A DNA stretch of 64,000 bases from a virus: IMG/VR virus record IMGVR_UViG_3300037797_000149, positions 1 through 64,000 of that record; one strand, 5' to 3'. The translations under genes and the position numbers were made by a program. This document shows positions 5,105 through 62,343 of this stretch, piece by piece. Under the pieces are notes generated by a model. The model saw only the letters and a list, made by a program, of their open reading frames with translations. It did not search any database and was not told the origin of the DNA. Numbering within the stretch: the first letter of the stretch is position 1; each line of letters begins with the position of its first letter.

Positions 5105-5108
5105 TGAC

Positions 5109-5357: not shown

Positions 5358-5386
5358 GAGAAACTAGGTCGGATAGTATCAAAGGT

Positions 5387-5608
5387 ATGTCCGGCCTTGG
5401 AGAACCTAGCGAGCGCGCATTGCCTGCTCCCGGCGACATCGTCACCTTTCGTGACGAGAAACGCGTCGTGGTGGACATCACCGGCGAGGGTGACGCTGTT
5501 CTGCGCTACACCGATGACGATCCCCGCCGCCAGGTGAATCCCGAAGGCGGGGACATGCATTTGGAAGCGGCCGAGGCGGCCTCTCTCACAGTGGCGGGGC
5601 GGTCCTGA
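5387..5608 (+). CDS. hypothetical protein (first gene of lysis cassette?)
   Basis: Internal ATG of ORF 5306..5608. TAGTAT (5374-5379) lies 7 nt upstream, so the mRNA may be leaderless. Confidence 0.45.
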   Translation: MSGLGEPSERALPAPGDIVTFRDEKRVVVDITGEGDAVLRYTDDDPRRQVNPEGGDMHLEAAEAASLTVAGRS

Positions 5609-6837: not shown

Positions 6838-6868
6838 AACGCGAAACCACCCTTACTGAGGCGGTCTG

Positions 6869-7123
6869 ATGCCAGATGAGCCGACACTCGGTGAGGCCCT
6901 GCGACGATTGGACAAGATCGAACAGCGCATCGATAGCCGTCTGGTATCGCTGGGAACTTATAGTGCCGAACGTAAGCACGATCAGGACGCCGTTACAGAA
7001 GTGTCGCGGCGTACGACCAAGCTCGAGAATCGTATCGACTGGGCTTATCGGGCGGCGGTGACAGGGATCATCATGCCGGTAGTGGTCGGGGTCATGCTTT
7101 TCCTTCTGTTGAGGGCGCGATGA
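6869..7123 (+). CDS. membrane protein, holin-like (single C-terminal TM)
   Basis: 84 aa with a coiled N-terminus and a hydrophobic 'VTGIIMPVVVGVMLFLLL' followed by RAR. Directly downstream of the endolysin. Confidence 0.5.
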   Translation: MPDEPTLGEALRRLDKIEQRIDSRLVSLGTYSAERKHDQDAVTEVSRRTTKLENRIDWAYRAAVTGIIMPVVVGVMLFLLLRAR

Positions 7124-36364: not shown

Positions 36365-36416
36365 TAGGATTGGTTGGCAGCCCTACCGACGAACTCCCCA
36401 CAACATGGGGACGCCG

Positions 36417-36503
36417 CGGAAGATTGAGGAATCGAACCCCCGAGCTCTCACTCGTCGTTCCAGATTTCAAATCCGGTTGCCGGCCCAAGCGGCGAAATCT
36501 TCC
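36417..36503 (-). tRNA. tRNA-Ser (anticodon UGA), type II, slightly non-canonical
   Basis: Minus-strand fold: acceptor GGAAGAT/ATCTTCC; anticodon arm CCGGA-TTTGAAA-TCTGG; long variable arm CGAGT-GAGA-GCTCG; T-loop GGGGG-TTCGATT-CCTCA. There is an extra nt between acceptor and D stem, and one T-stem mismatch. Confidence 0.6.
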
Positions 36504-43780: not shown

Positions 43781-44168
43781 TTCGTATCTCACTGTCCTTG
43801 ATCCGCTGATCAGTCCACGGCAGCGCCAGACCGTCGTTCTCGCGGCGTGGCACTACGTGTAGATGGAGATGGAACACGCTCTGAGTGGCCGGTCTGCCGA
43901 CGCTGGTAATGATGTTCACGCTCTTGTACCGCTCGTCGCCCTGTTCGGCCATGGAAGCGGCCCACGTAGCTGCGTCCCGCATCGCAAGGGCAGACGTCTG
44001 CGGATCTTCGCAGGCGTCGGTGACATGCTTGACCGGGATGACCAGGAAATGGCCGTCAACGACCGGCTTGAGCGGTGTGATCGCGAAGCACACGCTGTTG
44101 GCGTGGAACACGTGCGCCGGCTCGAATCCCAACACGATCCGGCAGAACACGCAGAACTCACTAGTCAT
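43770..44168 (-). CDS. HIT (histidine triad) family nucleotide hydrolase/transferase
   Basis: 'HLHLHVVP' histidine triad and N-terminal 'CVFC'. The start sits in the GAGGTGCGCGATGAC module. Confidence 0.75.
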   Translation of the reverse strand: MTSEFCVFCRIVLGFEPAHVFHANSVCFAITPLKPVVDGHFLVIPVKHVTDACEDPQTSALAMRDAATWAASMAEQGDERYKSVNIITSVGRPATQSVFHLHLHVVPRRENDGLALPWTDQRIKDSEIRNDD

Positions 44169-44577
44169 CGCGCACCTCGCTGTTCTGAATTTTCACTCGC
44201 TGATGTCTACGGCACCTATCGTCATGCGATCCGAATGCTCCACCGTGTACTGGACAATCGACGCACTCAAATTCAGGCCACTCCTGACTCTTTACGCGCT
44301 TGCCACGATTTCCTATGGCAGCACCCCACATACAGCAGCACTCACTCTTTGTGTCAGATTTGCCTGAACATCCGCATGTCGCGGTATGGCGATTGTCATG
44401 CTTTCCGTCAGTACCCAGCGGGCGATGCCGATCGCACTCATCGATCAACCGCCCGATCAGATCGGAATCACGCTGGATTTGTGCAACATCCCAATCGCGA
44501 TGGCTCACGGCACTTTGCGCGCGGCAGAGGGTCTCGCGAATCTGCTTCGGAAGATCGGGAACGCTCAGCTCAGTCAT
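44161..44577 (-). CDS. Cys-rich hypothetical protein
   Basis: ORF 44161..44811 trimmed to ATG 44577 inside GGGTGCGCGATGAC (ATGA overlap). Confidence 0.5.
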   Translation of the reverse strand: MTELSVPDLPKQIRETLCRAQSAVSHRDWDVAQIQRDSDLIGRLIDECDRHRPLGTDGKHDNRHTATCGCSGKSDTKSECCCMWGAAIGNRGKRVKSQEWPEFECVDCPVHGGAFGSHDDRCRRHQRVKIQNSEVRDD

Positions 44578-44849
44578 CGCGCACCCGACTTCATGCAGCG
44601 CAAGCACTTCGGCAATCTGGCTAGGCGCTCGTACTCGTCCTGAGTTCCGGTACCGCGCCAATGTGACGGAAGTGCGACAGCGAGTCCGCACAGGCTGAAC
44701 CGGGACGAGTCGAAGATATTGAGGCTGGTCATGTGGCGAACGCCACCGCGAGCCAGGTAGCGCCAGCCCTCGCCGACAAGTAGCGCACCACGTTCGCCGA
44801 GGGTTTCCCATTGACGCCCGTCAAATCGCGTCGGGATCTGAGTGGTCAT
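44574..44849 (-). CDS. hypothetical protein
   Basis: ORF 44574..44963 trimmed to ATG 44849 inside GAGGTGCGCGATGAC. Confidence 0.5.
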   Translation of the reverse strand: MTTQIPTRFDGRQWETLGERGALLVGEGWRYLARGGVRHMTSLNIFDSSRFSLCGLAVALPSHWRGTGTQDEYERLARLPKCLRCMKSGAR

Positions 44850-45363
44850 CGCGCACCTCACTGTCCGTGTCCTCGACCGGCTGTAGATAGCTGACCGGTC
44901 GGCCGATCTTCTTGGCGTAGTCGATCTCCGAACGGGTCGATTCGCCGATGTAGCCACCGACATTGAGCACGAGCACCTTGTCAGCCAGGTCGATCTTGCG
45001 CTTGTGCAGCTCGTCGAGCCGCGCCTTGAGACCGTGGTCTACGTGCTGTGGGTCCTCATCGAGCGCCTGCGTGGTGACGATCTCGATTGACAAAACGATC
45101 GCCCCGGCATGAGTGAGCCGCACGCGCTGGCGGTTGAACTCGTCAACGAAGCGCGTCGAACCGCAAAGGCAGACGATTTCTGGTTTTGAGCCACCCCACT
45201 CAACGGTGGTCTCCGTGTCGTCGCCGGGGATAAGTCCCGCATCAGCGAGGATGTCCAGTGCGGCCTCCAGAGGTGCGTTGATCCAGTGGCCAGGCTTGTT
45301 CTTGTTCAACGCACCCTTACGACTGAAGGCCTCGGCGGCGCGTTCGATATTGCTCAGCATCAT
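44821..45363 (-). CDS. fusion: MMxSNIE N-module + nucleoside 2-deoxyribosyltransferase-like 'CGSxRF' domain
   Basis: 180 aa. The N-terminus 'MMLSNIERAAE...LADAGLIPGDD' is shared with three downstream paralogues. The C-terminus 'CLCGSTRF...YIGESTRSEIDYA' is paralogous to 8463..8801. Confidence 0.5.
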   Translation of the reverse strand: MMLSNIERAAEAFSRKGALNKNKPGHWINAPLEAALDILADAGLIPGDDTETTVEWGGSKPEIVCLCGSTRFVDEFNRQRVRLTHAGAIVLSIEIVTTQALDEDPQHVDHGLKARLDELHKRKIDLADKVLVLNVGGYIGESTRSEIDYAKKIGRPVSYLQPVEDTDSEVRDDHSDPDAI

Positions 45364-45647
45364 TTGACCTTTTCCTGATTGTCCATATCCTCGACCGGGT
45401 CGCCTTCCTCATCGAGCTTGTGCTCACTGCTGAGGAAAAGGCGCTGAGCCCTGACGAACGCCTCCGTGAAATTCACGAGAACCGATGTGGCTGTCACGGT
45501 TCTGTGCTCACACCTAATGCGGCAGCGCACCCACTGATCAAAAGCGAATTCGATCCGAATGATGGTCGGGCAGGCATTTTCTAATTTTCGGTTCAGGAAT
45601 GCCCCGAGGACGTCGGAATCGTTGGGCATCAGCCAGTTAGCTGTCAT
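45360..45647 (-). CDS. hypothetical protein
   Basis: ORF 45360..45812 trimmed to ATG 45647 inside GAGGTGCGCGATGAC. Confidence 0.5.
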   Translation of the reverse strand: MTANWLMPNDSDVLGAFLNRKLENACPTIIRIEFAFDQWVRCRIRCEHRTVTATSVLVNFTEAFVRAQRLFLSSEHKLDEEGDPVEDMDNQEKVK

Positions 45648-45900
45648 CGCGCACCTCGCTGTCCGTGTCCTCGACATGATCTTTGTGTGGATAGCCGTCA
45701 CAACGACATCCATCCACCGGCCCCCAAGACGGGCATGTGCTGTTGATAGCGGCATCATGCCGACACGGTTCATTCCAGTACCCCATGTCACAGCCGCACT
45801 TTTCCGGGTCATGCCAGCGGGGAACCGACTCGTGGCATTGAGTGCATGCCAGGTTCGGGTTGGCGAACGTGATGTAGACGTGTGTTCGAGTGAAGGTCAC
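45637..45900 (-). CDS. Cys-rich hypothetical protein
   Basis: GTG 45900 with AGGAGGTGAG upstream and a GTGA overlap. Ends 'VEDTDSEVRDDS'. Confidence 0.45.
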   Translation of the reverse strand: MTFTRTHVYITFANPNLACTQCHESVPRWHDPEKCGCDMGYWNEPCRHDAAINSTCPSWGPVDGCRCDGYPHKDHVEDTDSEVRDDS

Positions 45901-46283
45901 GACTCGCTCACCTCCTGATTGTCCGTGTCCTCGACCGGCTGCCACAGCGTGCGGTGCGTGGTCACGGTGCGATTGACGACAGCAGTGAGCGTGTACCCGT
46001 GATTCGCGAACTGATTGGGGTACTTGCGGAGTTTTCGCGCCTCATGTTCAGAGCCGACAATAATGTCTGCGCCATCGCTCGTGCGCACGCCCCATTGGAC
46101 TCCAGTCTTTGCGTCGTCGCCAGGGATGAGACCCGCGTCGGCGAGAGCCTGAGCCAGCTCCAGGGCAGACATGCCGCCAAAGTGGCCGATCTGGCCCTCC
46201 CACGGTTTGGGTGGCGGGAGGGTGCGCGTTTTGAGCGTATGCTCGATCACCTCGGCTGCTTTCTCAACGTTGCTCGGCATCAT
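45897..46283 (-). CDS. MMPSNVE-family paralogue
   Basis: Trimmed to ATG 46283 (ATGA overlap). 'MMPSNVEKAAE...LADAGLIPGDDAKTGVQWGV'. Confidence 0.55.
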   Translation of the reverse strand: MMPSNVEKAAEVIEHTLKTRTLPPPKPWEGQIGHFGGMSALELAQALADAGLIPGDDAKTGVQWGVRTSDGADIIVGSEHEARKLRKYPNQFANHGYTLTAVVNRTVTTHRTLWQPVEDTDNQEVSES

Positions 46284-46648
46284 TCGCCTCCTTTCTGATA
46301 CGGCACCCACGGTGTGTGAATTGCGCTTCGGTGGACCGCCCAGCCTGCAGGGGGATGGACGCCTGCGGATTCCTGGTCGATCTCAAACCCAAATGCTTCA
46401 GTCGCGTCCCGAACCTTCTCGACCCGCCCGTTGTTCCATTGAACGCCGTACTGGGCAGTGGTCTCAGCGTTGTCGGGAATGAGAAGGCCCTCCTCGGCCA
46501 GAGCCTGGGCCTGATGCGTATCCGGATCGACGTAGGCGTCTTCGCACGCTGCGCACCGCCACGAGATGAAGCCGCCCACCACCCTGCGGAAGATGGGTTT
46601 GTGTGCAACGACGATCTCAGATGCTTTTTCGACGTTGGACGGCATCAT
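46280..46648 (-). CDS. MMPSNVE-family paralogue
   Basis: 122 aa. 'MMPSNVEKASE...LAEEGLLIPDNAETTAQYGV'. Confidence 0.55.
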   Translation of the reverse strand: MMPSNVEKASEIVVAHKPIFRRVVGGFISWRCAACEDAYVDPDTHQAQALAEEGLLIPDNAETTAQYGVQWNNGRVEKVRDATEAFGFEIDQESAGVHPPAGWAVHRSAIHTPWVPYQKGGE

Positions 46649-47031
46649 TCACCCCCTTCCTGATCGATCTTCCATGGACCGCGATGGGTGGTCACAGTGC
46701 TGTATACGACCGCTTCCACATACCCGGACTCGGCCTCGTCAGGACCACCTTTAGGGAGATCCTTCGCCTGAGCCCATGCCATCCTCCGAGGCGGACCCCA
46801 GTCAGCGGGGTCATGATCACTGCCGAAACTGTCGATCTCACCATCGTCGTAACGCACAGCCCACTCAGTGACCTGTGACGAATCACCTTCGGGGATGAGT
46901 CCCGCGTCGGCGAGATCGCGAGCCAACTGGCGGCAGAAGTCTCGGGGTCCTGCTACAACGCCTTCCTCCGCCCACATCAACCAGCGGTCATGCATCACCC
47001 CGGCGGCACGTTCGATATTGTCAGGCATCAT
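46645..47031 (-). CDS. MMPSNVE-family paralogue
   Basis: 128 aa. 'MMPDNIERAAG...LADAGLIPEGDSSQVTEWAV'. Confidence 0.55.
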   Translation of the reverse strand: MMPDNIERAAGVMHDRWLMWAEEGVVAGPRDFCRQLARDLADAGLIPEGDSSQVTEWAVRYDDGEIDSFGSDHDPADWGPPRRMAWAQAKDLPKGGPDEAESGYVEAVVYSTVTTHRGPWKIDQEGGE

Positions 47032-47034
47032 CGA

Positions 47035-47259
47035 TCACCTCCGGCGGAGCGCACTCTGTTGAGCAGTACCAATACCCGAGGCTGGTCCAGATCCCGCGCT
47101 CTCCGGTCTTTCTCGCCGCAAGACCCAGGAAGCACGCCCCGCACAAGGCGCAGCGCCGCGTGAACTCAGAGGCCGGTTCAGGTTTCCCCCAAGCGGATTT
47201 GACACGGATCGGCCAGTTGGGTCAAAAGAGCCGGCGGGCCAATCGGCGCTGGACGGCAT
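47035..47259 (-). CDS. uncertain small gene; ATG frame looks non-coding downstream, alternate frame encodes a zinc ribbon
   Basis: ATG 47259 is start-coupled (TGATG). The Arg/Ser/Pro/Gly-rich product looks like an off-frame translation. The -1 frame (47021..47221) reads '..RRCALCGACF...YWYCSTEC..' but has no canonical start. Confidence 0.3.
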   Translation of the reverse strand: MPSSADWPAGSFDPTGRSVSNPLGGNLNRPLSSRGAAPCAGRASWVLRRERPESAGSGPASGIGTAQQSALRRR

Positions 47260-47549
47260 CAGTGATCACCACCTTTGCGGACGACAAGCGTGGCCATTCC
47301 CAGACCGTGCCGGATCGCCAGCTCCGAACAACCGTCCCCGGCGTCGTCCACGGAGTCGCCCGCACGTTCGATGTCCGTCGCGATCTGCTCACGTTGCGCC
47401 TTGAGCGCCCTTTGAACCTCCGCCTGTACGTACGTGTCGATGTGTGGCATCAGTGCGTCAGTGACCGCCTCCGCATGCGCATTCGTCACGATCGGGTCGT
47501 CGGGCAACGCGTCCTGCAATTCGCCGATCAGTTCGTCCCGTGTCGTCAC
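47259..47549 (-). CDS. hypothetical protein
   Basis: 96-aa ORF with an ATGA overlap upstream. Confidence 0.55.
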   Translation of the reverse strand: MTTRDELIGELQDALPDDPIVTNAHAEAVTDALMPHIDTYVQAEVQRALKAQREQIATDIERAGDSVDDAGDGCSELAIRHGLGMATLVVRKGGDH

Positions 47550-53543: not shown

Positions 53544-53972
53544 TCAGTACCGCTTTATCGCGCCGCAACCCTTGGCGCATCGCACGACATGAACGGGACC
53601 GATGGTTTGAACCACCTCCCATTTGTGTTGGTCGCATGGGGTGAAATCGGCGGTGTCGAATCGTTCGCCGGTTCTGAAACGGAAGTCGGCGAGACCGTCG
53701 TAGTTGTCCGAGGCGGCGTTTGGGTCGATCGTGAACAGGTGGTTTAAAAATATTCCCCATTCATCCCATGTCGCGGCGGCGTCATAAGTCGCTCCACGAT
53801 TGCCTGAATTGCGGAACCGGCGACCTTTACGGGGTTCCGCCGTAAGCGTGACATTGAAAGCGTGATCACGCTTACGGCTCCCGTGCAAGGTGTATTCGAC
53901 GTATACGTTCTCAATTTCCCGGGCCGCGTCGTACAGGTCTTGGAACGAGAGTTTGTCAGTGTGAATTCTCAT
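53544..53972 (-). CDS. hypothetical protein
   Basis: ORF 53544..54434 trimmed to ATG 53972 (GAGGAGG upstream, ATGA overlap). Confidence 0.55.
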   Translation of the reverse strand: MRIHTDKLSFQDLYDAAREIENVYVEYTLHGSRKRDHAFNVTLTAEPRKGRRFRNSGNRGATYDAAATWDEWGIFLNHLFTIDPNAASDNYDGLADFRFRTGERFDTADFTPCDQHKWEVVQTIGPVHVVRCAKGCGAIKRY

Positions 53973-54406
53973 GTCGTTTCCTCCTCGTTCTGGGTTTCGA
54001 TGTAGTGGAATATCGTCGTGTGTTCGTCCATGTCGGAATCGCAGAAATCGACGGAGACTTCGCGAAGGGCTTTGCGGACGATCGCCAGTCGTGCGGCTTC
54101 GGGGGTGTGGGGTGCGAGATCGCTGTTGGCGTCGGTCACACTCACGTAGGCGTGCCATCTGCCGTCGTCGTCTTCGGCCAGGTCCACGTTTAGGACGCTG
54201 GCCGGGTCCAGGAACCGGGCCAGGACATGGGCGATGTCGTGGGCGTCGTCGTCGGCGATGGTCCAGTGATCCTCGGCGGTCGCCTGGTCGTTTTCGTCGG
54301 AGGCGTCGTTCCCGGCTTGGAGTCCGGCCAGACGGGACGTGTTCAACTCGCGGAACCGGCTCACCGTGTCGGCGGGGATCATCACGCCGGGCGTTGTTTC
54401 GGTCAT
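53969..54406 (-). CDS. acidic hypothetical protein
   Basis: 145-aa ORF with RBS AGGAGAGAG. Confidence 0.55.
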   Translation of the reverse strand: MTETTPGVMIPADTVSRFRELNTSRLAGLQAGNDASDENDQATAEDHWTIADDDAHDIAHVLARFLDPASVLNVDLAEDDDGRWHAYVSVTDANSDLAPHTPEAARLAIVRKALREVSVDFCDSDMDEHTTIFHYIETQNEEETT

Positions 54407-54466
54407 CGGTCTCTCTCCTGTTCCGGCCCGGCACTTCCGGGCCTCGTGGGTCTCGCGGATGACGCT

Positions 54467-55063
54467 TTAGATCAATTTCGCTAATTCGTTCTCGGCTTCA
54501 CTGAGTTCTTGCTGCCGGGTCGTGAGTGCCTGTTCGGCCTCGCGGACCGCTTTTTCAGCGTTGGCGATCTGCCGGCGTTTTCCGGCGAGGGTGGTTTCAG
54601 AGATCCGTTCGGGGGTCATGAACGCTTCGGCCACCGGGCCGGTCACCAGATCACGCAGTGCGCGGCTGGCCGCCGGGCTCATGGACCCGTGAACGGTGAT
54701 GGTTCCGACCCGGTCGATGGATGAGTACTCAACGCGCCATTGCCCGTCGACGGTGGGTGCGAGGTGAACGGTGCCGCGATAGGCCACGCCGTTGATCCGG
54801 ACGGGGTTTCGTATCACGGCCTGGCCGGTATTGATTTCGTCGGCTTCGGGGTCGGCGGAACGGTAGACGGTTCGGCCGTTGTCGCCGGTAAGTGTCGGAG
54901 AGAGCTCGATGAAAAATCCCGGGACGGGCTCACCGCTTCGCGGCATGGTCGTCATCGCGGCGCGGATGTGGGCTCGTCCGGTGATTTTCGGTGTGTGGAA
55001 CGTCAGTTCGTGGCGGCCCACGTGGTCGGGGCTGCCGGCGATGGTAAAGGGCGCATCGGTCAT
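54467..55063 (-). CDS. hypothetical protein (C-terminal coiled coil)
   Basis: ORF 54467..55123 trimmed to ATG 55063 (GGAGGAGG upstream). Confidence 0.55.
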   Translation of the reverse strand: MTDAPFTIAGSPDHVGRHELTFHTPKITGRAHIRAAMTTMPRSGEPVPGFFIELSPTLTGDNGRTVYRSADPEADEINTGQAVIRNPVRINGVAYRGTVHLAPTVDGQWRVEYSSIDRVGTITVHGSMSPAASRALRDLVTGPVAEAFMTPERISETTLAGKRRQIANAEKAVREAEQALTTRQQELSEAENELAKLI

Positions 55064-55087
55064 GAGGGTATTACCTCCTCCGGGAGG

Positions 55088-55100
55088 CCGGGACGTCCGG
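55088..55100 (-). promoter_or_regulatory. start-associated element, variant copy (CCGGACGTCCCGG)
   Basis: Lies in the 5' UTR between promoter 55114..55142 and ATG 55063, 24 nt from the start codon. Confidence 0.4.
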
Positions 55101-55113
55101 CCTGATGAATGGA

Positions 55114-55142
55114 ACAGTACCATACTTGGCTTGGTGTGTCGA
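55114..55142 (-). promoter_or_regulatory. promoter, conserved family (TCGACA-17-TGgTACTGT)
   Basis: The minus strand reads tcgacacaccaagccaagtaTGGTACTGT. Confidence 0.55.
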
Positions 55143-55155
55143 TGGCTTCGGGCTG

Positions 55156-55181
55156 CTTGACATAACTACTTGACATAACTA
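55156..55181. repeat. 13-bp tandem direct repeat x2 (cttgacataacta)
   Basis: Two exact adjacent copies, each containing TTGACA, 14 bp upstream of the -35 of promoter 55114..55142. Confidence 0.85.
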
Positions 55182-55253
55182 GTGCCGTGATAATGGTCTA
55201 GACCGGTTTTCTGGTGATTGGTGCCGTGGTCTAGACCGGTTTTCTGGTGATTG
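55182..55253. repeat. 33/39-bp tandem direct repeat x2, each with palindrome GGTCTAGACC
   Basis: gtgccgtg(ataatg)gtctagaccggttttctggtgattg occurs twice and is followed by a partial third 'gtgccg'. The region is non-coding. Confidence 0.85.
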
Positions 55254-55361
55254 GTGCCGATCCCATGTGTGATCGTTTCCGCCGTGCCGTAAAAATCTGC
55301 CGACTGAGAGCCGAGACGCGAAGGTAATTTTCCCACGGGGAAAAGCCGGCGCGCCGGTGAA

Positions 55362-55397
55362 TTTCCCCCGGGCGAAAAATTTCTCGCCCGGGGGAAA
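55362..55397 (-). terminator. rho-independent terminator (one of 2-3 stacked hairpins)
   Basis: 14-bp perfect stem tttcccccgggcga / tcgcccgggggaaa, 5 nt after the stop of 55402..55809. Further hairpins lie at 55328-55344 and 55345-55358. Confidence 0.65.
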
Positions 55398-55401
55398 ATT
55401 T

Positions 55402-55809
55402 TCATGAGTCGTCGTCGCCGAGAAGTGAAAAAAGCCGCTCGATCAATTTTTCCGCTACGGCCAAGTTGAGTTTGTTGGCCAAGTCGACGGCGTCCGTGGC
55501 CAAACGGAAGATCGCCCGTATGTCACCTTCCGACCACGTTTCACCGGTTCGGTAATCCTTGAGACCGGCGAAAACCGTGTAGGTGCCGTTGAGCTCACGG
55601 CCCACGGTGTAGTGAGTCCGGAATTCCACGGGGATCGTCGCTCTTGGATCTCTGTCGGAATCGTCAGAGAGCACGCGGGCAATTTCGGTTAGCTGCCCTG
55701 GCGTGATGTTGGTCCATTTTGAGCTGTACTCGCGATTGCCGGACTCACCACGGGGTGAGATCTTGATCGCGTAGGTCTCGGCTTCGCCGAGCTGGTCGCG
55801 AATGTCCAT
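55402..55809 (-). CDS. hypothetical protein
   Basis: 135-aa ORF with RBS GAGGAGG. Confidence 0.55.
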   Translation of the reverse strand: MDIRDQLGEAETYAIKISPRGESGNREYSSKWTNITPGQLTEIARVLSDDSDRDPRATIPVEFRTHYTVGRELNGTYTVFAGLKDYRTGETWSEGDIRAIFRLATDAVDLANKLNLAVAEKLIERLFSLLGDDDS

Positions 55810-55814
55810 GTCTC

Positions 55815-55973
55815 TCAGACCTCCTCGGTGTTGCGCATGCGGCGCCGCATGGTGCCCGACGACGGCATGTCGTCGAACTTCGCGGTGGCGAGCTGCCGGC
55901 GGGCGCTCAGGCGGTCGGTGCGTCGGGTGACGCGCTTGGTGTTGCGGACTGCGATAGCGGTCTTCGTTGCCAT
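55815..55973 (-). CDS. small basic protein (52 aa)
   Basis: ATG 55973 is preceded by the conserved element plus GAGAGGA. Internal to ORF 55815..56336. Confidence 0.45.
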   Translation of the reverse strand: MATKTAIAVRNTKRVTRRTDRLSARRQLATAKFDDMPSSGTMRRRMRNTEEV

Positions 55974-55981
55974 GATGGCGA

Positions 55982-56013
55982 TCCTCTCAATGCGGGTATC
56001 CGGTACGTCCGGA
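55982..56013 (-). promoter_or_regulatory. start-associated conserved element, copy 1
   Basis: The minus strand reads TCCGGACGTACCGGATACCCGCATTGAGAGGA, identical to copy 2. The core CCGGACGTACCGG ends 26 nt before the ATG. Confidence 0.6.
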
Positions 56014-56028
56014 ACTAGAAACCCATAA

Positions 56029-56053
56029 GGCATATCGTGCGAGACGATATGCC
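56029..56053 (-). terminator. hairpin / terminator candidate
   Basis: 10-bp perfect stem ggcatatcgt / acgatatgcc with a 5-nt loop, just beyond the stop of 56065..56499. Confidence 0.5.
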
Positions 56054-56064
56054 GTGATGAGCCG

Positions 56065-56499
56065 CTAGGCAATGAGTTCACTGCAGATTCTTCGTACCTC
56101 GTTTTCGGCTGCTTCATTGAATGCATTATCGTATGCGTCGCATAATGATTCATCGTTGCATGAGAGTTCTTCGTCGTCGCTATCGAACGGTAATAGCCCG
56201 CAAACTGTACATGTTTTAGTACTGGTAAATCTTGCGTACTGCCATTCGTGATCAGCGTCGATTTCGTCGTATAGGTCTTGGGAGCTATAACCGTCCGACC
56301 ATTGCCCGGACAGGTCGGGAGTGGGGAGATCGTCAAGGATTTGCGGATCCCCGTCGTCGATTCCCGCTAGAACGCGTTTGGCAGTTTCCTGCATGTCTCC
56401 CGTGGCGCGTGATCCTACGGCGCTCTGTGCCCACCATTCCGCCGCGTTCACGCCGTGCTCACGTCCGATGCGTTCCGCGTGCTCTGTCGCCTTGCTCAT
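56065..56499 (-). CDS. acidic hypothetical protein ('MSKATEH' N-terminus)
   Basis: ORF 56065..56643 trimmed to ATG 56499, downstream of element copy 2. The 3' half is AT-richer. Confidence 0.5.
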   Translation of the reverse strand: MSKATEHAERIGREHGVNAAEWWAQSAVGSRATGDMQETAKRVLAGIDDGDPQILDDLPTPDLSGQWSDGYSSQDLYDEIDADHEWQYARFTSTKTCTVCGLLPFDSDDEELSCNDESLCDAYDNAFNEAAENEVRRICSELIA

Positions 56500-56507
56500 G
56501 ATCTCTA

Positions 56508-56539
56508 TCCTCTCAATGCGGGTATCCGGTACGTCCGGA
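56508..56539 (-). promoter_or_regulatory. start-associated conserved element, copy 2
   Basis: Same 32-nt sequence as copy 1, at the same distance from the ATG. Confidence 0.6.
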
Positions 56540-56554
56540 CCAAGTGACCCGAGA

Positions 56555-56580
56555 GCGTGCACGTGACGAGACGTGCACGC
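56555..56580 (-). terminator. hairpin / terminator candidate
   Basis: 10-bp stem gcgtgcacgt / acgtgcacgc with a 6-nt loop, after the stop of 56591..56788. Confidence 0.5.
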
Positions 56581-56590
56581 GACTGGACAC

Positions 56591-56788
56591 CTAGCGAACG
56601 GGAGTGACGCCCGGCAATTTGTGGCCAGCAAATGACGGATCATGTGCGATGTGGACGACGTTGTGAGTGTTGAGTTTCGACATGGGCTCTGTCACGTCGG
56701 CCTTAAGTGGGAATGACGCGCCTATCTTCTCTGCATTGATTTTGCATATAGGGCAACCGCACGAGATTCTGACGATTTTGTGAGCCAT
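56591..56788 (-). CDS. hypothetical protein (CxC..C motif)
   Basis: ORF 56591..56890 trimmed to ATG 56788 (GGAAGGGA upstream). Confidence 0.45.
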   Translation of the reverse strand: MAHKIVRISCGCPICKINAEKIGASFPLKADVTEPMSKLNTHNVVHIAHDPSFAGHKLPGVTPVR

Positions 56789-56804
56789 CGTTCCCAGTCC
56801 CTTC

Positions 56805-56921
56805 CTAGGCGAGTGTGACGCGAATTGCGGCAATGATAATGGTGCTGATAATGGCGAGAAATGCCAGTGTCGATAGTCCCTCACGGACATGTTGCGGAAT
56901 GCGTACAGTCTTAGATCTCAT
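56805..56921 (-). CDS. small membrane protein (38 aa)
   Basis: Internal ATG 56921 of ORF 56805..57044. 'LSTLAFLAIISTIIIAAI'. Confidence 0.3.
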   Translation of the reverse strand: MRSKTVRIPQHVREGLSTLAFLAIISTIIIAAIRVTLA

Positions 56922-57165
56922 CGTCGGTAACCCACTTTTCAAAAGCACCCTGAATGCTGTGCATATGGAGTCGTTTCTCAGCGCGAAAATCCATGTAGGC
57001 ATCTGCGTAAGCGTTCGCGAATTCTTCCGAGTCGATGGCGTCATGTCCCTGGTCTACGCGACCCCATGCGTACCCGATAGCCCACGTTTTTAGTTGCTCC
57101 CACGTGTCCGCCTGCCACGGGATGCGGCTACGTTTCCAGTCCGGGTGCTCTGTCGCCTTGTCCAT
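56911..57165 (-). CDS. hypothetical protein ('MDKATEH' N-terminus)
   Basis: ORF 56911..57282 trimmed to ATG 57165, downstream of element copy 3. Its first codons are shared with 56065..56499. Confidence 0.5.
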   Translation of the reverse strand: MDKATEHPDWKRSRIPWQADTWEQLKTWAIGYAWGRVDQGHDAIDSEEFANAYADAYMDFRAEKRLHMHSIQGAFEKWVTDDEI

Positions 57166-57173
57166 TGTTCTCA

Positions 57174-57205
57174 TCCTCTCTGATGCGGGTATCCGGTACG
57201 TCCGG
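57174..57205 (-). promoter_or_regulatory. start-associated conserved element, copy 3
   Basis: The minus strand reads CCGGACGTACCGGATACCCGCATCAGAGAGGA. The core ends 27 nt before the ATG. Confidence 0.55.
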
Positions 57206-57278
57206 GCGAGGTGTCCCGTGATGAGACTCCCACAGTGGCCACCCTGTGTATCCCCGGTGAGTGGCCACCATGGCAACC

Positions 57279-57512
57279 TCACCTAAGGGTCACGTGGTCG
57301 GCGTACCCGTCGCCGTCAGGGTCCGTCAAGGTGAACGAACGGCCCTGCCCATTGCCCTGCCGCTCTGCATCCCACTGGCACGGGTAGCTGCTCTCGGCCT
57401 CGTCCGTCAGGCACGGGGGCAGCTCGGGGCGTGGCAGTGATTGGCCGAGCGGCACCATGGAAGCTGCCCACAGAGTGCTTCCTACGAGCACCGCGATAGC
57501 TGTACGTATCAT
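57279..57512 (-). CDS. secreted small protein
   Basis: 77 aa with signal-peptide-like 'MIRTAIAVLVGSTLWAASMVPLG'. Confidence 0.55.
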   Translation of the reverse strand: MIRTAIAVLVGSTLWAASMVPLGQSLPRPELPPCLTDEAESSYPCQWDAERQGNGQGRSFTLTDPDGDGYADHVTLR

Positions 57513-57535
57513 CGTGCTTCACCTCACATGCGCAG

Positions 57536-57548
57536 CCGGTACGTCCGG
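57536..57548 (-). promoter_or_regulatory. start-associated element, copy 4 (core only)
   Basis: CCGGACGTACCGG in the 5' UTR between promoter 57570..57598 and ATG 57512, 23 nt from the start. Confidence 0.45.
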
Positions 57549-57569: not shown

Positions 57570-57598
57570 ACAGTATCAGACGTGCCACACCGTGTCTA
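57570..57598 (-). promoter_or_regulatory. promoter, conserved family (TAGACA-17-TGaTACTGT)
   Basis: The minus strand reads tagacacggtgtggcacgtcTGATACTGT. First promoter of the 57.5-51.5 kb leftward block. Confidence 0.6.
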
Positions 57599-57806: not shown

Positions 57807-57984
57807 CGAAAAATCCACCACGCGTGAAAGCGAAAAATCCTCGAGGCTAGCGACGAAAAATCCACCACGCGTGAAAGCGAAAAATCCTCGAGGCTAGCGA
57901 CGAAAAATCCACCACGCGTGAAAGCGAAAAATCCTCGAAGCTAGCGACGAAAAATCCACCACGCGTGGAGGCGAAAAATCTCCC
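57807..57984. repeat. 47-bp tandem array (3.7 units) = 8 phased copies of (G)CGAAAAATC
   Basis: 'cgaaaaatc' starts at 57807, 57831, 57854, 57878, 57901, 57925, 57948 and 57972 (spacing 24/23 bp). Each unit carries the palindromes ACGCGT, CTCGAG and GCTAGC. Non-coding divergent region upstream of the packaging genes. Confidence 0.9.
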
Positions 57985-59634: not shown

Positions 59635-62343
59635 GTGGCTGGGACACTGGTCCTCCCCAAGCTGGTCGCCCCGGCCGATGCCGGGCGGTGGTTCCCGGCG
59701 AATGCGGATCTGGCACTGGCCGACCGGGTGGCCATGCTGGACCCGGACACCCGGGTCAAGACGTTGACCACGGGTGACGGGAAGCCGATCGACCCGGACA
59801 CGCTGCTTTACGATTTCAGATTCTGGGGGCGCCCGAGCCAGCTTTGCGTCTACGATTCCAGCGCGCACATCACCGCCATGATCTCCGGAAGGGGTGGAGG
59901 CAAGACAAGATCATTGTCCGAGGTGGCGCACCATCTGGCCGAGATGATGCCGGGCAGCCGAGGGGCGCTGATCGCCCGCACCGCCGCCGACGTGCGTGAC
60001 ACTTTGATCAGGGGTGACAGTGGGATCATCGAGACCGCCCATCCCGACGCCCGGCCCAGGTATGTGGCCAACAACCGCTCTCTGACCTGGCCTAACGGGA
60101 CGACGGCGACGTCGTTTTCGGCGCAGCAGCCTGATGGTCTGAGGGGTCCACAGTTTAATTGGGCACTGTGCATCGCCGCAGGCCAGAAGGTGAGAGTGGA
60201 ACGAGGGTTCGTACCAATCGAGGATGTGACCAGTGACGACAAGGTACTGGTGCGCGACGGGCGGTACGTCCCGCTTCGGCAAGGTGCGCGACTGACTCGC
60301 CGCCGGACTGAGGTTATCAGGATCGCTACTGCGACTCGCACACTGGACCTGACGCCGGACCATAGAGTCGCTACGCCTGAAGGTTGGGTCGAGGCTCGTG
60401 AACTCCGGCCCGGTGATACTATCCTGACATGTCAAATTCCGACCCAATACCCAGTGCCGCACCAGGCTGGTTCACCTTCGATGACCAGCGATGGTACCTC
60501 AGGAAAAAGTTCAATCACTACGCCAATCGAAAAGGTGAACTCCTTCATCGAGAAGTCTGGAAATCGGTCAATGGGCCGATTCCAGAAGGCATGGTCATTC
60601 ATCACAAAGACCATGATCCGACGAACAACCGGCTCGGCAATCTGGAACTCCGAACCGATGACGATCACAGACGGCATCACACGTCAGTACGAGAAGACGA
60701 AGCTTGGGTCGAGCAGTACAAGGCTGAAACCAGATCGGCCAACGCCAGGAAGCTCTGGGATGCGCGTCGAGAAGATCCGGATGAGCGCATCTGCCAGCAC
60801 TGCGGGGAAGTTTATACATCGGTTGGCATGGTCTCGCTTTTCTGTTCTGCTCGATGCCGGAATCTGGCTGGACCTGCGACACGTCGCGGTGAGTATGCCA
60901 AGACGGTCGCATCGGAATGCCTTGGTTGCGGCGAAAAGTTCGCTTCGACGAGCACGCGAGCCAAATACTGCTCCAATCGATGCAAACGGCGTCTCCAGAA
61001 CCGGCAACGATCTGAACTTCGGAAGTCTGAAGACAATCGCATCTGCCCGGTCTGCGGCTCCGGCAATTTCGGCAATCGCCGGTCCGATGCCGTCTTCTGT
61101 TCAACCCATTGTCAAGCACGAGACGCTCGTATCCGTCGATTCCGCGCCAAGGCAGGACGTGTATGACCTGACCACGTCCGATCCAGATTTTCCGGAGTTC
61201 TTCGCCAGCGGCATACTCGTCCACAATTGTGACGAGGTAGCGGCCTGGCCGACCCGCCCGCCATCTGGCTCGATCGCCAATGCCTGGGACAACGTGAAGC
61301 TGGCCACCCGGCTGGGGAACAACCCGCAGATCTTCGTGGCGACCACGCCGCGCCGGGTGCCGGTGGTGATCGAGCTGCTGAACGCCACCCACGCCGATCC
61401 GTCCAAGTGCCTGGTGGTGCGGGGGTCGACGATGGCGAACCGGCATCTGGCGCAGGTGTACCGCGACACCGTGGTGGCCATGTACGCCGGGACGACGCTG
61501 GCCCAGCAGGAGCTAGAGGGCGAACTGCTGGGGGACATCGACGGCGCGCTGCTGACGATGGACAAGATTTCCAGGGTGAGCGATCCGGACGAGATCGCCC
61601 GGTTGCAGGATATGAACTATCTGCGCAGCAAGTATCCGGTGCGCATCGTGGGGGTGGACCCGTCGACCAGCGACAAGCCGCGAGACGAGTGCGGGATCGT
61701 GGTGGTGGCCGCGACGGCGGAGCGCAATCCGCACAAGCGCAAATGTGTGGTGCTGGCGGATGAGTCGCTGCACGGGTCGCCGGGTGTGTGGGCGGCCAGG
61801 GTGGCGGAGGTGGCCCGCGAATACGAGGCGTTCGTGGTGGTGGAGGACAACCAGGGCGGCGAGATGGTGCGCATGGTGATCCGGGCGCACGATGAGCATG
61901 TGCCGGTGGTGCTGGCGCGCAGCGACGAGTCGAAGGTGGTGCGGGCCGAGCCGGTCGTTTTGGCTTTTGAGAAGTCGAATGTGCGTCATCTGGATTTTTT
62001 CGGAGAACTCGAAACTCAGTGGACGTCCTGGGTGCCCGACGAGAGCCTGTACTCCCCCGATCGCCTGGACGCGTCGGTGATCGCGATTTCGGCGTCACTG
62101 GTGGCGCAGCCCAGCGGAATGGGCGGGCGGATCCGGGTGGGCAGCCGGCAGCGCGGAGCGGCTGGCAAGCGGAAGGTCCGCGGGCTGAAGCAGCACGAGA
62201 AGTCGATTGCGTCCACGCCGGCGGCCAACGCTTTCGCCGCGGCGCCCAGGATCAGGTACGTGAAGCAGTCGCCGGCCGAAAAACGACGTGCCCGAAAATC
62301 CGCTTCGAGGCGGCTGGACGGATTCGGTTCGCCGTATCCGTGA
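59635..62343 (+). CDS. terL: terminase large subunit, interrupted by an intein (60169-61227)
   Basis: Walker A 'GRGGGKT'. Exteins rejoin as '..FNWAL/CDEVAAWP' (Walker B). The nuclease half contains 'IVGVDPSTS..ECGIVVV'. GTG start 8 nt after GGGAGG. Confidence 0.85.
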   Translation: MAGTLVLPKLVAPADAGRWFPANADLALADRVAMLDPDTRVKTLTTGDGKPIDPDTLLYDFRFWGRPSQLCVYDSSAHITAMISGRGGGKTRSLSEVAHHLAEMMPGSRGALIARTAADVRDTLIRGDSGIIETAHPDARPRYVANNRSLTWPNGTTATSFSAQQPDGLRGPQFNWALCIAAGQKVRVERGFVPIEDVTSDDKVLVRDGRYVPLRQGARLTRRRTEVIRIATATRTLDLTPDHRVATPEGWVEARELRPGDTILTCQIPTQYPVPHQAGSPSMTSDGTSGKSSITTPIEKVNSFIEKSGNRSMGRFQKAWSFITKTMIRRTTGSAIWNSEPMTITDGITRQYEKTKLGSSSTRLKPDRPTPGSSGMRVEKIRMSASASTAGKFIHRLAWSRFSVLLDAGIWLDLRHVAVSMPRRSHRNALVAAKSSLRRAREPNTAPIDANGVSRTGNDLNFGSLKTIASARSAAPAISAIAGPMPSSVQPIVKHETLVSVDSAPRQDVYDLTTSDPDFPEFFASGILVHNCDEVAAWPTRPPSGSIANAWDNVKLATRLGNNPQIFVATTPRRVPVVIELLNATHADPSKCLVVRGSTMANRHLAQVYRDTVVAMYAGTTLAQQELEGELLGDIDGALLTMDKISRVSDPDEIARLQDMNYLRSKYPVRIVGVDPSTSDKPRDECGIVVVAATAERNPHKRKCVVLADESLHGSPGVWAARVAEVAREYEAFVVVEDNQGGEMVRMVIRAHDEHVPVVLARSDESKVVRAEPVVLAFEKSNVRHLDFFGELETQWTSWVPDESLYSPDRLDASVIAISASLVAQPSGMGGRIRVGSRQRGAAGKRKVRGLKQHEKSIASTPAANAFAAAPRIRYVKQSPAEKRRARKSASRRLDGFGSPYP
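60169..61227 (+). mobile_element. intein (Hint domain split by a ~230-codon linker)
   Basis: Cys1 (TGC 60169-71), block B 'LTPDH', blocks F/G 'VYDLTT...FFASGILVHN' (His-Asn 61222-27) and +1 Cys (TGT 61228-30). Confidence 0.8.
60429..61166 (+). CDS. HNH (HNH_3-type) endonuclease with three zinc-ribbon repeats, nested out of frame inside the TerL intein
   Basis: 245-aa ORF in the -1 frame relative to TerL. 'HREVW...GPIPEGMVIHHKDHDPTNNRLGNLEL' plus 3x CxxCG..(F/Y)CSxxC. An in-frame TGA lies 4 codons upstream of the ATG. Confidence 0.8.
   Translation: MSNSDPIPSAAPGWFTFDDQRWYLRKKFNHYANRKGELLHREVWKSVNGPIPEGMVIHHKDHDPTNNRLGNLELRTDDDHRRHHTSVREDEAWVEQYKAETRSANARKLWDARREDPDERICQHCGEVYTSVGMVSLFCSARCRNLAGPATRRGEYAKTVASECLGCGEKFASTSTRAKYCSNRCKRRLQNRQRSELRKSEDNRICPVCGSGNFGNRRSDAVFCSTHCQARDARIRRFRAKAGRV

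Follow-up and report, generated by a model that had tools for sequence, protein, structure and literature searches.

A hairpin-forming start-associated repeat in the leftward gene block of an uncultivated actinobacterial phage

Six copies of a short hairpin-forming element precede gene starts within 3.1 kb (54.4-57.5 kb) of the 64-kb stretch of DNA analysed here (the window), and none is found elsewhere in it. The window comes from a metagenomic, uncultivated actinobacterial phage that is kin to the large Gordonia phages. The element is a new example among the start-associated repeats of actinobacteriophages and matches no published motif consensus. With moderate confidence, it can be read as a hairpin in the RNA leader of a modular cassette for translation initiation, which would serve in 5'-end protection or processing and would probably bind a specific factor. 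The comparative sequence data, in particular a covarying stem, flanks that extend it and a different hairpin in a third phage, argue more for a folded hairpin than for a classical double-stranded DNA operator.

Copies of the element and the genes behind them

The hairpin-bearing block consists of small leftward genes of unknown function, which are divergent from the terminase module and are probably early genes. An earlier note on this DNA had reported five minus-strand copies of the element between 55088 and 57548, located 23-27 nt before the ATG codons at 57512, 57165, 56499, 55973 and 55063, and both the copies and the start codons were recovered. Exact CCGGACGTMCCGG occurs five times in the 64-kb window, always on the minus strand (55088, 56000, 56526, 57193 and 57536), against an expectation of 0.02, and 0 of 100 dinucleotide shuffles reached five. 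With up to two mismatches there are 16 matches, which is at chance level, so the signal resides in the exact copies. In addition, a sixth, diverged copy, CCGGAAGTGCCGG, which is absent from the earlier note, lies at 54428-54440 on the minus strand. The block with its promoters and hairpins reads as follows, in the direction of transcription.

57570..57598, minus strand: predicted sigma-A-type promoter P1, TAGACA-N17-(TGa)TACTGT
57536..57548, minus strand: hairpin copy 1, CCGG-ACGTA-CCGG, 4-bp stem within a longer predicted helix, 23 nt before ATG 57512
57279..57512, minus strand: gene after copy 1, 77 aa, matches phrog_19904, start ATG 57512
57229..57273, minus strand: long hairpin of about 15 bp, after gene 57279-57512 and upstream of copy 2
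57193..57205, minus strand: hairpin copy 2, CCGG-ACGTA-CCGG, then ATACCCGCATCAGAGAGGA (ribosome-binding site), 27 nt before ATG 57165
56911..57165, minus strand: gene after copy 2, 84 aa, start ATG 57165
56555..56580, minus strand: upstream hairpin, GCGTGCACGT-ctcgtc-ACGTGCACGC, between gene 56591-56788 and copy 3
56524..56540, minus strand: hairpin copy 3, GTCCGG-ACGTA-CCGGAT, 6-bp stem, 13-mer at 56526-56538, 26 nt before ATG 56499
56065..56499, minus strand: gene after copy 3, 144 aa, start ATG 56499, stop codon 56065-56067
56029..56053, minus strand: upstream hairpin, GGCATATCGT-ctcgc-ACGATATGCC, separated from copy 4 by a linker that is U-rich in part
55999..56013, minus strand: hairpin copy 4, TCCGG-ACGTA-CCGGA, 5-bp stem, 13-mer at 56000-56012, 26 nt before ATG 55973
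55815..55973, minus strand: gene after copy 4, 52 aa, start ATG 55973
55362..55397, no strand given: strong terminator-like hairpin with a 14-bp stem, flanked by T runs on each side
55114..55142, minus strand: predicted sigma-A-type promoter P2, TCGACA-N17-(TGg)TACTGT
55085..55103, minus strand: hairpin copy 5, AGGCCGG-ACGTC-CCGGCCT, 7-bp stem, 13-mer at 55088-55100, 24 nt before ATG 55063
54467..55063, minus strand: gene after copy 5, 198 aa, start ATG 55063
54425..54443, minus strand: hairpin copy 6, GGCCCGG-AAGTG-CCGGGCC, 7-bp stem, 13-mer at 54428-54440, 21 nt before ATG 54406
53969..54406, minus strand: gene after copy 6, 145 aa, start ATG 54406

The earlier note had proposed a genome-wide scan for restriction of the motif to this block, and the exact matches and a covariance model bear the restriction out. 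The six copies score 24-29.5 bits with the model, and the next-best match on both strands (128 kb) scores 13 bits. A relaxed pattern, NCGG-A.GT.-CCGN, gives one extra match, which is at 50471 in coding sequence, antisense within the primase gene. Among Rfam families there was no match at gathering score in the window, and the block gave only chance-level matches (E up to 5).

Two copies had been placed downstream of predicted promoters and three behind terminator-like hairpins, and strong sigma-A-type promoters (P1 and P2) and stable hairpins (57229..57273, 56555..56580 and 56029..56053) are found at these places. Copy 1 sits 21 nt past the -10 hexamer of P1, and the stem base of copy 5 is 10 nt past that of P2. 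The hairpin at 55362..55397 divides the P1 unit from the P2 unit. A U tract is missing from most of the upstream hairpins, and the lower stem of the hairpin at 56029..56053 begins at the stop codon of the gene at 56065-56499. An automatic call that starts the 55815..55973 gene at ATG 56033, across both hairpins, is probably wrong.

The likeness between copies extends beyond the hairpin. Copies 56538 and 56012 are identical across 33 nt (TCCGGACGTACCGGATACCCGCATTGAGAGGAT), while copy 57205 differs from these by a 1-nt indel and two substitutions; the extended element described earlier is thus real, though its consensus was slightly off. The shared unit is laid out as follows.

56474..56554, minus strand: shared cassette of hairpin, ATACCCGCAT, GAGAGGA and ATG plus seven codons
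57140-57221, minus strand: repeat of the shared cassette
55971-56028, minus strand: repeat of the shared cassette, without the coding part

The coding likeness, which the earlier note had given as M(S/D)KATEH, is also real (MDKATEH/MSKATEH). It stops after codon 7, and the rest of the two proteins is unrelated. From hairpin to codon 7, the likeness covers about the size of a ribosome footprint. Within the favoured reading, the cassette may be a modular translation-initiation leader that stands ahead of whichever gene comes first after each intergenic gap of the leftward block.

Stem covariation and predicted RNA 5' ends

The search of related phages that had been proposed turned up a relative, L005 (TerL 64% identical), with eight variants of the element in its homologous block. 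One pair of hairpin-bearing genes is orthologous (54467-55063 and L005 2935-3585, 36% identity), and both members have a promoter-plus-hairpin leader; the remaining hairpin-bearing genes are non-homologous between the two phages. The comparative set therefore comprises 14 instances from two phages only, some of which are recent duplicates. All 14 are in sense orientation, 19-27 nt before an ATG with a Shine-Dalgarno sequence.

Across this set (n=14), pair 8-20 is CG in seven instances, UA in four and UG in three, and no instance leaves it unpaired. Pair 7-21 is GC in seven, UA in three and CG in two, while pair 6-22 is GC in eight, GU in two and AU in one. The covariation score is 0.304 as against 0.181 in shuffles, with 1 of 500 shuffles as high, and it is at most 0.109 when partner columns are slid. 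Stems range from 4 to 8 bp and are lengthened by flanks that are unrelated in sequence yet complementary. In the loop, A-N-G-U-R, positions A1, G3 and U4 are invariant, as is the inner stem, CGG/CCG. Outer arms that differ yet remain complementary are expected of intramolecular pairing and not of base-specific protein contacts. In addition, the core and its position are kept at 64% TerL identity despite differing flanks and genes, with compensatory changes in the stem, suggesting selection on the hairpin itself.

In a third relative, L019, the place of the element is taken by another hairpin, (N)CGUC-AGAGU-GACG(N), which lies 14-17 nt ahead of ATGs and whose basal pair also covaries (AU in two, UA in two, CG in one and UG in one). 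In this phage an intergenic cassette of about 90 nt is repeated.

Several observations count against an RNA reading. The asymmetry between G-U and A-C is weak, at 5 versus 1 at well-paired positions and about 6 versus 5 with peripheral positions included, so that the case for sense-strand RNA falls short of proof. The hairpin is present in the minimum-energy fold of five of the six window leaders and missing from that of copy 57205, and in two window copies the stem is only 4 bp.

A complete sigma-A-type promoter lies directly upstream in 6 of the 14 instances, in both phages. In five of these six promoter-proximal copies, the stem base is 8-10 nt after the -10 hexamer of the predicted promoter, and one copy begins 4 nt past the 3' end of a tRNA-like gene. 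As placed by the predicted sigma-A promoters and, once, by the tRNA, the hairpin would lie 2-4 nt from RNA 5' ends. In the same genome, a second class of promoters has the non-palindromic YGAC(A/C)NNGAC at the promoter-relative position of the hairpin.

Possible functions of the element

In the favoured reading, the element would be a sense-strand RNA stem-loop with a 4-8 bp stem, a CGG/CCG core and the pentaloop A-N-G-U-R, in a leader ordered as hairpin, 6-14 nt, Shine-Dalgarno sequence and ATG. At P1-type promoters, primary transcripts would have the hairpin 2-4 nt in from their 5' end, and other copies would lie just downstream of processing points, which may be the 3' end of a tRNA or hairpins at the 3' end of the cistron before, so that every message would open with a base-paired 5' end. 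Such an end could guard against 5'-end-dependent decay (RNase E/J, RppH) and could stop upstream sequence from pairing with the ribosome-binding site. 5'-terminal stem-loops stabilise mRNA, and RppH needs at least 2-3 unpaired 5' nucleotides (review PMC3997798). The conserved loop and inner stem may be recognised by a specific trans-acting factor, phage- or host-encoded, that would coordinate translation or processing of the whole gene set; the related phage with a different hairpin presumably has a different partner. Transcription starts, RNA as the active form, 5'-end protection and the binding factor are all presumed in this model. The conserved loop would be superfluous in a purely structural 5' hairpin and no RNA-binding protein was identified among the proteins scanned, both of which weigh against the RNA reading.

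Among the functions that the earlier note had offered, the RNA-level options (translational control or RNA processing) gain support from the stem covariation, the stem-extending flanks and the L019 hairpin. It had also offered an operator. As a double-stranded DNA operator or stoperator-like roadblock, the near-palindrome would be bound by a phage regulator that keeps RNA polymerase from initiating at or escaping from P1 and P2 and halts elongation at the internal copies, in the way that the Cluster A repressor acts at stoperators. The near-palindromic core and the single orientation of all copies relative to transcription fit this account. So does the location at about +2 to +20 of six predicted promoters in two phages, a classical operator position, as well as YGAC(A/C)NNGAC at the same position of the second promoter class, which would suit DNA-binding regulators and suggests class-specific ones near +10; these last two points also count against RNA. 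Likewise, the inverted repeats of the Cluster K extended start-associated sequences (ESAS) are now read as promoter-plus-operator elements (PMC11373665). However, conservation amounts to only 3-4 bp per arm, the arms farther out differ yet remain complementary, and the central 5 nt are asymmetric but conserved. An operator explains neither the covarying flanks nor the fixed spacing to the start (19-27 nt in 14 of 14), nor the likeness reaching into the coding region. The block yielded no helix-turn-helix or repressor gene, and the copies lie within one 3-kb stretch, unlike the spread of stoperators. An operator is less probable than the RNA leader. An antitermination site is less likely still: a nascent-RNA hairpin would recruit an N-like protein and permit read-through of the intergenic hairpin terminators. 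In lambda nut sites, boxB has a 5-bp stem and a GNRA-like pentaloop, with an upstream boxA and an arginine-rich N-like protein. The sizes of stem (about 5 bp) and loop fit this shape, the hairpin occurs just downstream of early-type promoters, and every copy precedes the next terminator-like hairpin of the block, but the loop is A-N-G-U-R rather than G-N-R-N-A, most upstream hairpins have no U tract, and antitermination does not call for copies that recur ahead of nearly all cistrons with constant spacing to the start codon.

The earlier suggestion of a promoter for a modified polymerase is disfavoured, and it is the least probable of the explanations weighed here. A phage-specific polymerase or sigma factor would start transcripts a few nucleotides downstream of the hairpin, and N4 early promoters are indeed small DNA hairpins with variable stems, of 5-7 bp with a 3-nt loop, read by a giant virion RNA polymerase. 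A conserved, oriented element of 13-32 nt ahead of genes with no recognisable sigma-70 promoter would suit such a role, and a start about 5 nt past the hairpin would keep the Shine-Dalgarno sequence in the leader. Such a promoter would nevertheless be redundant in the 6 of 14 copies that already have a complete sigma-A promoter immediately upstream, with fixed spacing. Moreover, the loop here is 5 nt and not 3, the window has no ORF longer than the primase (928 aa), followed in size by TerL (902 aa), and no RNA polymerase gene or domain was seen in the window, where the 10 largest proteins scanned gave no polymerase-subunit match. Finally, it is very unlikely that the repeat has no function of its own and is the footprint of duplication or recombination of gene-start cassettes, or a linker for module shuffling. 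The near-identity of copies 2-4 across 32-54 nt, including seven codons grafted onto unrelated proteins, and the repeated L019 cassette agree with this, yet the core and its position persist at 64% TerL identity while flanks and downstream genes differ, and the stem changes are compensatory.

A more tentative extension of the RNA leader reading is that the hairpin might be the RNA address of a post-transcriptional regulon. A phage protein would read the A-N-G-U-R loop and CGG/CCG stem on every early cistron and would cut or gate polycistronic RNA into uniformly led messages; it could repress or activate translation, or be a hairpin-specific endoribonuclease of the Cas6/Csy4 kind. L019-type phages may have swapped the hairpin-protein pair, and start-associated repeats may generally be RNA operators with co-evolving readers.

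Relation to known repeats and leaders

Start-associated repeats of actinobacteriophages were described in 2011 and later in several clusters, and their function was still listed as unknown in 2024 and 2025. The present element gives a concrete RNA-level hypothesis, owing to its compensatory stem changes, conserved asymmetric loop and defined position relative to predicted RNA 5' ends. If true, at least some of these repeats would be post-transcriptional control points of early phage genes in high-GC hosts, and the cassette could serve expression engineering in Actinobacteria as a compact leader module. The analogy that the earlier note had drawn with such repeats applies to organisation (multiple copies, orientation, fixed distance, a non-structural block) and not to sequence, which belongs to no published family.

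The start-proximal inverted repeats of Microbacterium phage Cluster EG (GATCAACCNNGGTTGATC) and mycobacteriophage Cluster O (TGTTCGGNNNCCGAACA) are of unknown function (PMC7302621, PMC4351075). They share with the element a short inverted repeat in short intergenic gaps, in 8-10 or more copies, that is kept among relatives whose flanking genes differ; the EG repeats also lie in leftward non-structural genes near the genome end, 14-22 bp before starts as compared with 19-27 nt here. However, their spacer is 2-3 nt instead of a conserved asymmetric 5-nt loop, their arms are invariant over 7-8 bp where the element has a 3-bp core with covarying extensions, and one third of the Cluster O sites are intragenic, without orientation bias. 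In the window, GATCAACCNNGGTTGATC has no match at up to three mismatches and TGTTCGGNNNCCGAACA none at up to two. Cluster EC Microbacterium phages have an 18-bp asymmetric motif, TAGaCTATaGGTgTaAgC, 21-30 bp before starts (PMC7302621). Its distance window, place upstream of the ribosome-binding site, single orientation and small intergenic regions resemble those of the element, but it is not an inverted repeat, is spread over structural and non-structural regions and is unrelated in sequence.

Cluster A mycobacteriophage stoperators (mentioned in PMC3203893 and PMC4351075) are likewise 13-bp sites oriented with transcription, at the promoter and in intergenic gaps. They are asymmetric, number 20-30 or more genome-wide, serve as binding sites of the immunity repressor and keep no set distance from starts, whereas the present sites are hairpin-forming and confined to 54.4-57.5 kb; neither a repressor nor an integrase turned up among the window proteins that were scanned. 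The 5'-terminal stabiliser stem-loops of the ompA, papA, aprE and T7 gene 10 leaders (review PMC3997798) are single and gene-specific, without shared sequence. The element, in contrast, forms a family whose loop and inner stem do not vary, implying specific recognition. Stabiliser stem-loops lie within about 0-4 unpaired nucleotides of the RNA 5' end; here, where the starts are predicted, the stem base is 8-10 nt after the -10 hexamer in five of six promoter-proximal copies and, in one copy, 4 nt after the tRNA 3' end.

There is an organisational parallel with the start-associated sequences (SAS) and ESAS, which are also multi-copy, oriented, linked to start codons (mostly ATG), found after larger intergenic gaps and limited to non-structural genes. 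The six window and eight L005 copies have the same arrangement, in one orientation and before mostly non-homologous genes. ESAS are imperfect 15-17 bp inverted repeats 4-14 bp apart that enclose a SigA-like promoter, while the arms here are 4-8 bp around a 5-nt loop, with the promoter upstream of the hairpin. In ESAS, the best-studied case, RNA pairing was explicitly rejected and DNA binding preferred; departures from the repeat there do not support RNA pairing, whereas those observed here are compensatory. The 13-bp SAS consensus is GGGATAGGAGCCC in Cluster K and GGGAAAGGACCCC in Cluster EF. The Cluster K form has two matches at two mismatches in the window as against 1.8 expected, neither near the block. 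Like the element, SAS are carried by unrelated gene families, and their consensus varies between related subclusters. SAS are non-palindromic, lie 3-9 bp from the start and overlap the ribosome-binding site; here 19-27 nt separate the hairpin from the ATG, with a distinct GGAGG/GAGAGG site in the interval.

Copies of the element and their surroundings

The exact 13-mer CCGGACGTMCCGG occurs five times in the 64-kb window, always on the minus strand, against an expectation of 0.02 copies from dinucleotide shuffles. Allowing two mismatches brings the count to chance level, so the signal resides in the exact copies. All five end 23-27 nt before an ATG, with a GGAGG- or GAGAGG-type ribosome-binding site in between, which agrees with the near-constant distance from five start codons described in an earlier note. 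A search with a relaxed loop added a sixth copy, CCGGAAGTGCCGG, and only one further match, at 50471, antisense within the primase gene.

Copies of the element and associated features of the window
57598-57570, minus: predicted sigma-A-type promoter P1, TAGACA-N17-TGaTACTGT, extended -10, just 5' of copy 1
57536, minus: copy 1, exact match, ATG at 57512
57193, minus: copy 2, exact match, ATG at 57165
56526, minus: copy 3, exact match, ATG at 56499
56000, minus: copy 4, exact match, ATG at 55973
55362-55397: strong terminator-like hairpin dividing the P1 unit from the P2 unit
55142-55114, minus: predicted sigma-A-type promoter P2, TCGACA-N17-TGgTACTGT, extended -10, just 5' of copy 5
55088, minus: copy 5, exact match, ATG at 55063
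54428-54440, minus: copy 6, relaxed loop, 21 nt 5' of the next gene's ATG at 54406
59635-62343: large terminase (TerL), 902 aa, intein at about residues 179-531 (Hint_2 and Intein_splicing domains)

In a covariance model scan of both strands of the window, the six copies score 24-29.5 bits and the next best site 13 bits, confirming the proposed restriction of the motif to this block. The earlier note had also described an extended element shared by three copies. Two of these, at 56538 and 56012, match at every position for 33 nt, but the third, at 57205, departs from them by one indel and two substitutions. Similarly, the reported likeness between coding sequences holds for the first seven codons behind 57205 and 56538 (MDKATEH/MSKATEH) and ends there, the proteins being otherwise unrelated. 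The placement of two copies behind predicted promoters was recovered as the strong promoters P1 and P2, and that of three copies after hairpins as stable 10-15 bp hairpins preceding copies 2, 3 and 4. The hairpin ahead of copy 4 has a lower stem that starts where the gene before it ends, at its stop codon.

The window, a phage genome from JGI metagenomes with identical fragments in four samples, has genes for a primase-polymerase/D5 helicase, a DNA polymerase of family A, several helicases and an amidase. Its large terminase carries an intein that the closest TerL homologues (P0002-P0005, 508-543 aa) lack, and the nearest cultured relatives by TerL are large Gordonia phages (GMA2, 54%; GodonK/Phendrix, 52%). 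The block itself consists of small leftward genes, divergent from the module leading into the terminase, and none of its proteins matched an informative family in Pfam or PHROGs.

Several further features surround these genes. A tandem repeat (57807-57980; 47 bp, 3.7 copies, 97% identity) takes up the intergenic region from which P1 and the first plus-strand gene (57985) diverge; it has a 23/24-bp sub-period containing GCGAAAAATCC and may be bound in packaging, replication or regulation. Directly 5' of P2 (55156-55259) lie two copies of an exact 33-bp direct repeat (55194-55259) and two of a 13-bp direct repeat (55156-55181), which resemble reiterated binding sites. In the source contigs, automatic annotation places some ORFs across regulatory elements at 55166-55405, 57128-57271 and 55974-56033: a 79-aa ORF traverses the terminator, repeats and promoter, a 47-aa ORF traverses a hairpin, and a 20-codon extension of a 52-aa gene does the same; these are probably not genes. 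Elsewhere, several minus-strand genes at 44160-47270 have conserved segments in common at their 5' and 3' ends (repeat families D3, D4, D9, D11 and D14), indicating a family of tandem paralogues. At 36416-36503 on the minus strand, ARAGORN reports a tRNA-Ser(tga), while an Rfam scan of the window at the gathering score returned no family, tRNA included.

Variant copies in a relative and evidence for base pairing

Looking for the motif in related phages, as the earlier note had suggested, yielded variant copies in one phage, L005 (also L006/L017; JGI contig Ga0395774_0000004, 127.5 kb), whose TerL is 64% identical and whose architecture is the same. Its leftward block holds eight NCGG-A.GT.-CCGN sites, all followed by an ATG at a distance of 19-27 nt: TCGGACGTACCGA and TCGGACGTGCCGG twice each, and TCGGAGGTACCGA, TCGGATGTACCGA, TCGGAAGTGCCGG and CCGGACGTACCGG. 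Promoters of the form TTGACA/TTGACG/TAGACA-N17-TACTGT or TACGCT precede four of these sites, and one hairpin begins 4 nt past a tRNA-like gene (L005 2825-2899, minus strand, within the leftward block), for which a four-base anticodon (gaac) is called. In L005, seven tRNAs are also clustered beyond the terminase module, on its downstream side. The copy-5 gene (198 aa) is orthologous to L005 2935-3585 (36% identity), both with a promoter-plus-hairpin leader, and the remaining hairpin-bearing genes show no homology between the two phages. An AlphaFold2 model of the sole block protein conserved in both was unusable (pLDDT 44).

When the 14 distinct instances from the window and L005 are aligned without gaps, CGG, A, GT and CCG are invariant, and the variable flanking positions mostly remain paired.

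Base pairs flanking the invariant core in 14 instances (numbered by alignment column)
Pair 8-20: CG 7, UA 4, UG 3; unpaired 0
Pair 7-21: GC 7, UA 3, CG 2; unpaired 2
Pair 6-22: GC 8, GU 2, AU 1; unpaired 3

The covariation score is 0.304, against 0.181 in shuffles (1 of 500 as high) and at most 0.109 when partner columns are slid. Contiguous stems reach 4-8 bp and are lengthened by unrelated flanks (GGC/GCC, AGG/CCU, GAG/CUC, UAGU/ACUA), and the minimum-energy fold contains the hairpin in five of six window leaders. Since complementarity is kept while the bases change, unlike what a base-reading DNA-binding dimer would maintain, the stem pattern in these alignments points to intramolecular pairing. 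G-U exceeds A-C by 5 to 1 at well-paired positions and is about even with it once peripheral positions are included, so the strand asymmetry, which would decide between RNA and DNA, is weak. Two additional interactions were considered and rejected: loop-loop kissing through the ACGU palindrome is broken by the variant loops AAGUG, AUGUA and AGGUA, and an outer GGGU/ACCC helix around copies 2-4 competes with the upstream hairpin in predicted folds, with too few sequences to judge it by.

A candidate leader cassette and competing explanations

We consider the chances about even that the element is an RNA stem-loop which opens, on the 5' side, a modular leader cassette (hairpin, spacer, Shine-Dalgarno sequence, ATG) belonging to whichever cistron comes first after a gap in a block of early type. 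The hairpin would give each message a base-paired 5' end and insulate the ribosome-binding site. In addition, loop and inner stem are constant across two diverged phages, which a purely structural role would not need, suggesting that a specific factor reads the hairpin and coordinates the gene set, whether by repressing, activating or cutting.

The geometry at the promoters is consistent with such a leader. In five of six promoter-proximal copies, the extended stem base lies 8-10 nt after the -10 hexamer; the sixth, copy 1 of the window, lies 21 nt downstream, within a longer predicted helix. As transcription usually starts at the 7th or 8th nucleotide after the -10, these predicted starts would leave 2-4 unpaired 5' nucleotides, and the tRNA-adjacent copy in L005 would gain a comparable overhang after tRNA 3' processing. 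Stabilization of mRNA by 5'-terminal stem-loops is established, and RppH requires at least 2-3 unpaired nucleotides (review PMC3997798). Leaderless starts were rejected, given a clear Shine-Dalgarno sequence and no TANNNT at the proper distance, as were GGAAC-like strings as an ECF-sigma -35, whose spacing does not fit.

A double-stranded DNA operator or stoperator-like roadblock would suit the position from +2 to +20. It would also suit a second promoter class: among seven strong promoters outside the block (TNGACA-N17/18-TGnTAC(A/T)GT type), five show YGAC(A/C)NNGAC, a motif unlike the hairpin, 7-13 nt downstream of the -10 (-10 ends at 25708(+), 47942(-), 18666(-), 13189(-) and 11446(-)), and both block promoters have the hairpin in its place; this motif occurs 57 times in 128 kb (both strands of the window). 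However, an operator leaves unexplained why the flanks covary, why the distance to start codons is fixed and why similarity reaches codon 7, and it is unlikely. A boxB-like antitermination signal matches in shape and promoter-proximal position, but neither its loop consensus nor repetition at each cistron fits, and we give it a slim chance. Slimmer still is that of a functionless duplication footprint, against which stand conservation and compensatory change across phages. The earlier note had raised a promoter for a modified RNA polymerase; a phage-polymerase promoter, including an N4-type DNA hairpin promoter, is disfavoured and appears the most improbable of all, given sigma-A promoters directly upstream and no RNA polymerase gene found in the window.

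Relation to known start-proximal repeats and other phages

In organisation, the element resembles the start-proximal repeats of actinobacteriophages, as the earlier note had proposed for mycobacteriophage clusters. These include an 18-bp inverted repeat 14-22 bp 5' of leftward gene starts near the genome end in Cluster EG, an 18-bp motif 21-30 bp 5' of starts in Cluster EC, a 17-bp inverted repeat in Cluster O, and the start-associated sequence (SAS) and extended SAS (ESAS) of Clusters K and EF (PMC7302621, PMC4351075, PMC3203893), all still functionally undefined in the literature (PMC11373665, PMC12699233). By sequence the element lies outside these families: the three published consensuses searched for (K SAS, EG and O) do not occur above chance in the window, and Rfam gave no match. 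Moreover, departures from the ESAS consensus do not support RNA pairing, as its authors found, whereas those in the window and L005 do. Shared organisation without sequence membership suggests a new form of a known repeat type.

Among 50,697 phage records, megablast found no match to the block, and IMG/VR had none to an exact 23-mer or, in single-protein scans, to the 325-aa and 198-aa proteins; a homologue search with the latter returned itself only. A JGI metagenome profile scan with the conserved 325-aa neighbour found four short contigs only, without the upstream block. The promoter-plus-hairpin pattern matched 38 IMG/VR loci, with strong or multiple matches only on the L005 contig. A TerL profile scan of IMG/VR gave 58 loci, and the covariance model found no member besides the L005 phage over 824 kb of more distant relatives.

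A third relative, L019 (IMG/VR 3300037761_000240; TerL 63% identical to that of L005), has zero copies of the window element and six of CACCGTGCGGGA-(N)CGTC-AGAGT-GACG(N)-CCAGAGAGGCAG-ATG, whose basal pair is AU, UA, CG or UG and always paired. This hairpin may be a counterpart with another specificity. At about 1965-6930 on the minus strand, the whole intergenic cassette of about 90 nt is repeated. RNAalifold predicts a long hairpin upstream (CUGACG...CGUCAG; its apical helix covaries) that runs from the stop codon of the gene before it and overlaps the small hairpin in its 5' arm, which in these models suggests alternative pairings coupled to upstream translation. Direct inspection of Gordonia phage GMA2 revealed no such hairpin; its leftward right-end genes carry their own promoter-proximal motif. 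In GMA2 (record positions 88000-103424), TTTACAT...TGTGATAnnnT promoters are followed by a common ATCAACGAAA-like leader motif, a further case in this phage group of conserved sequence next to promoters.
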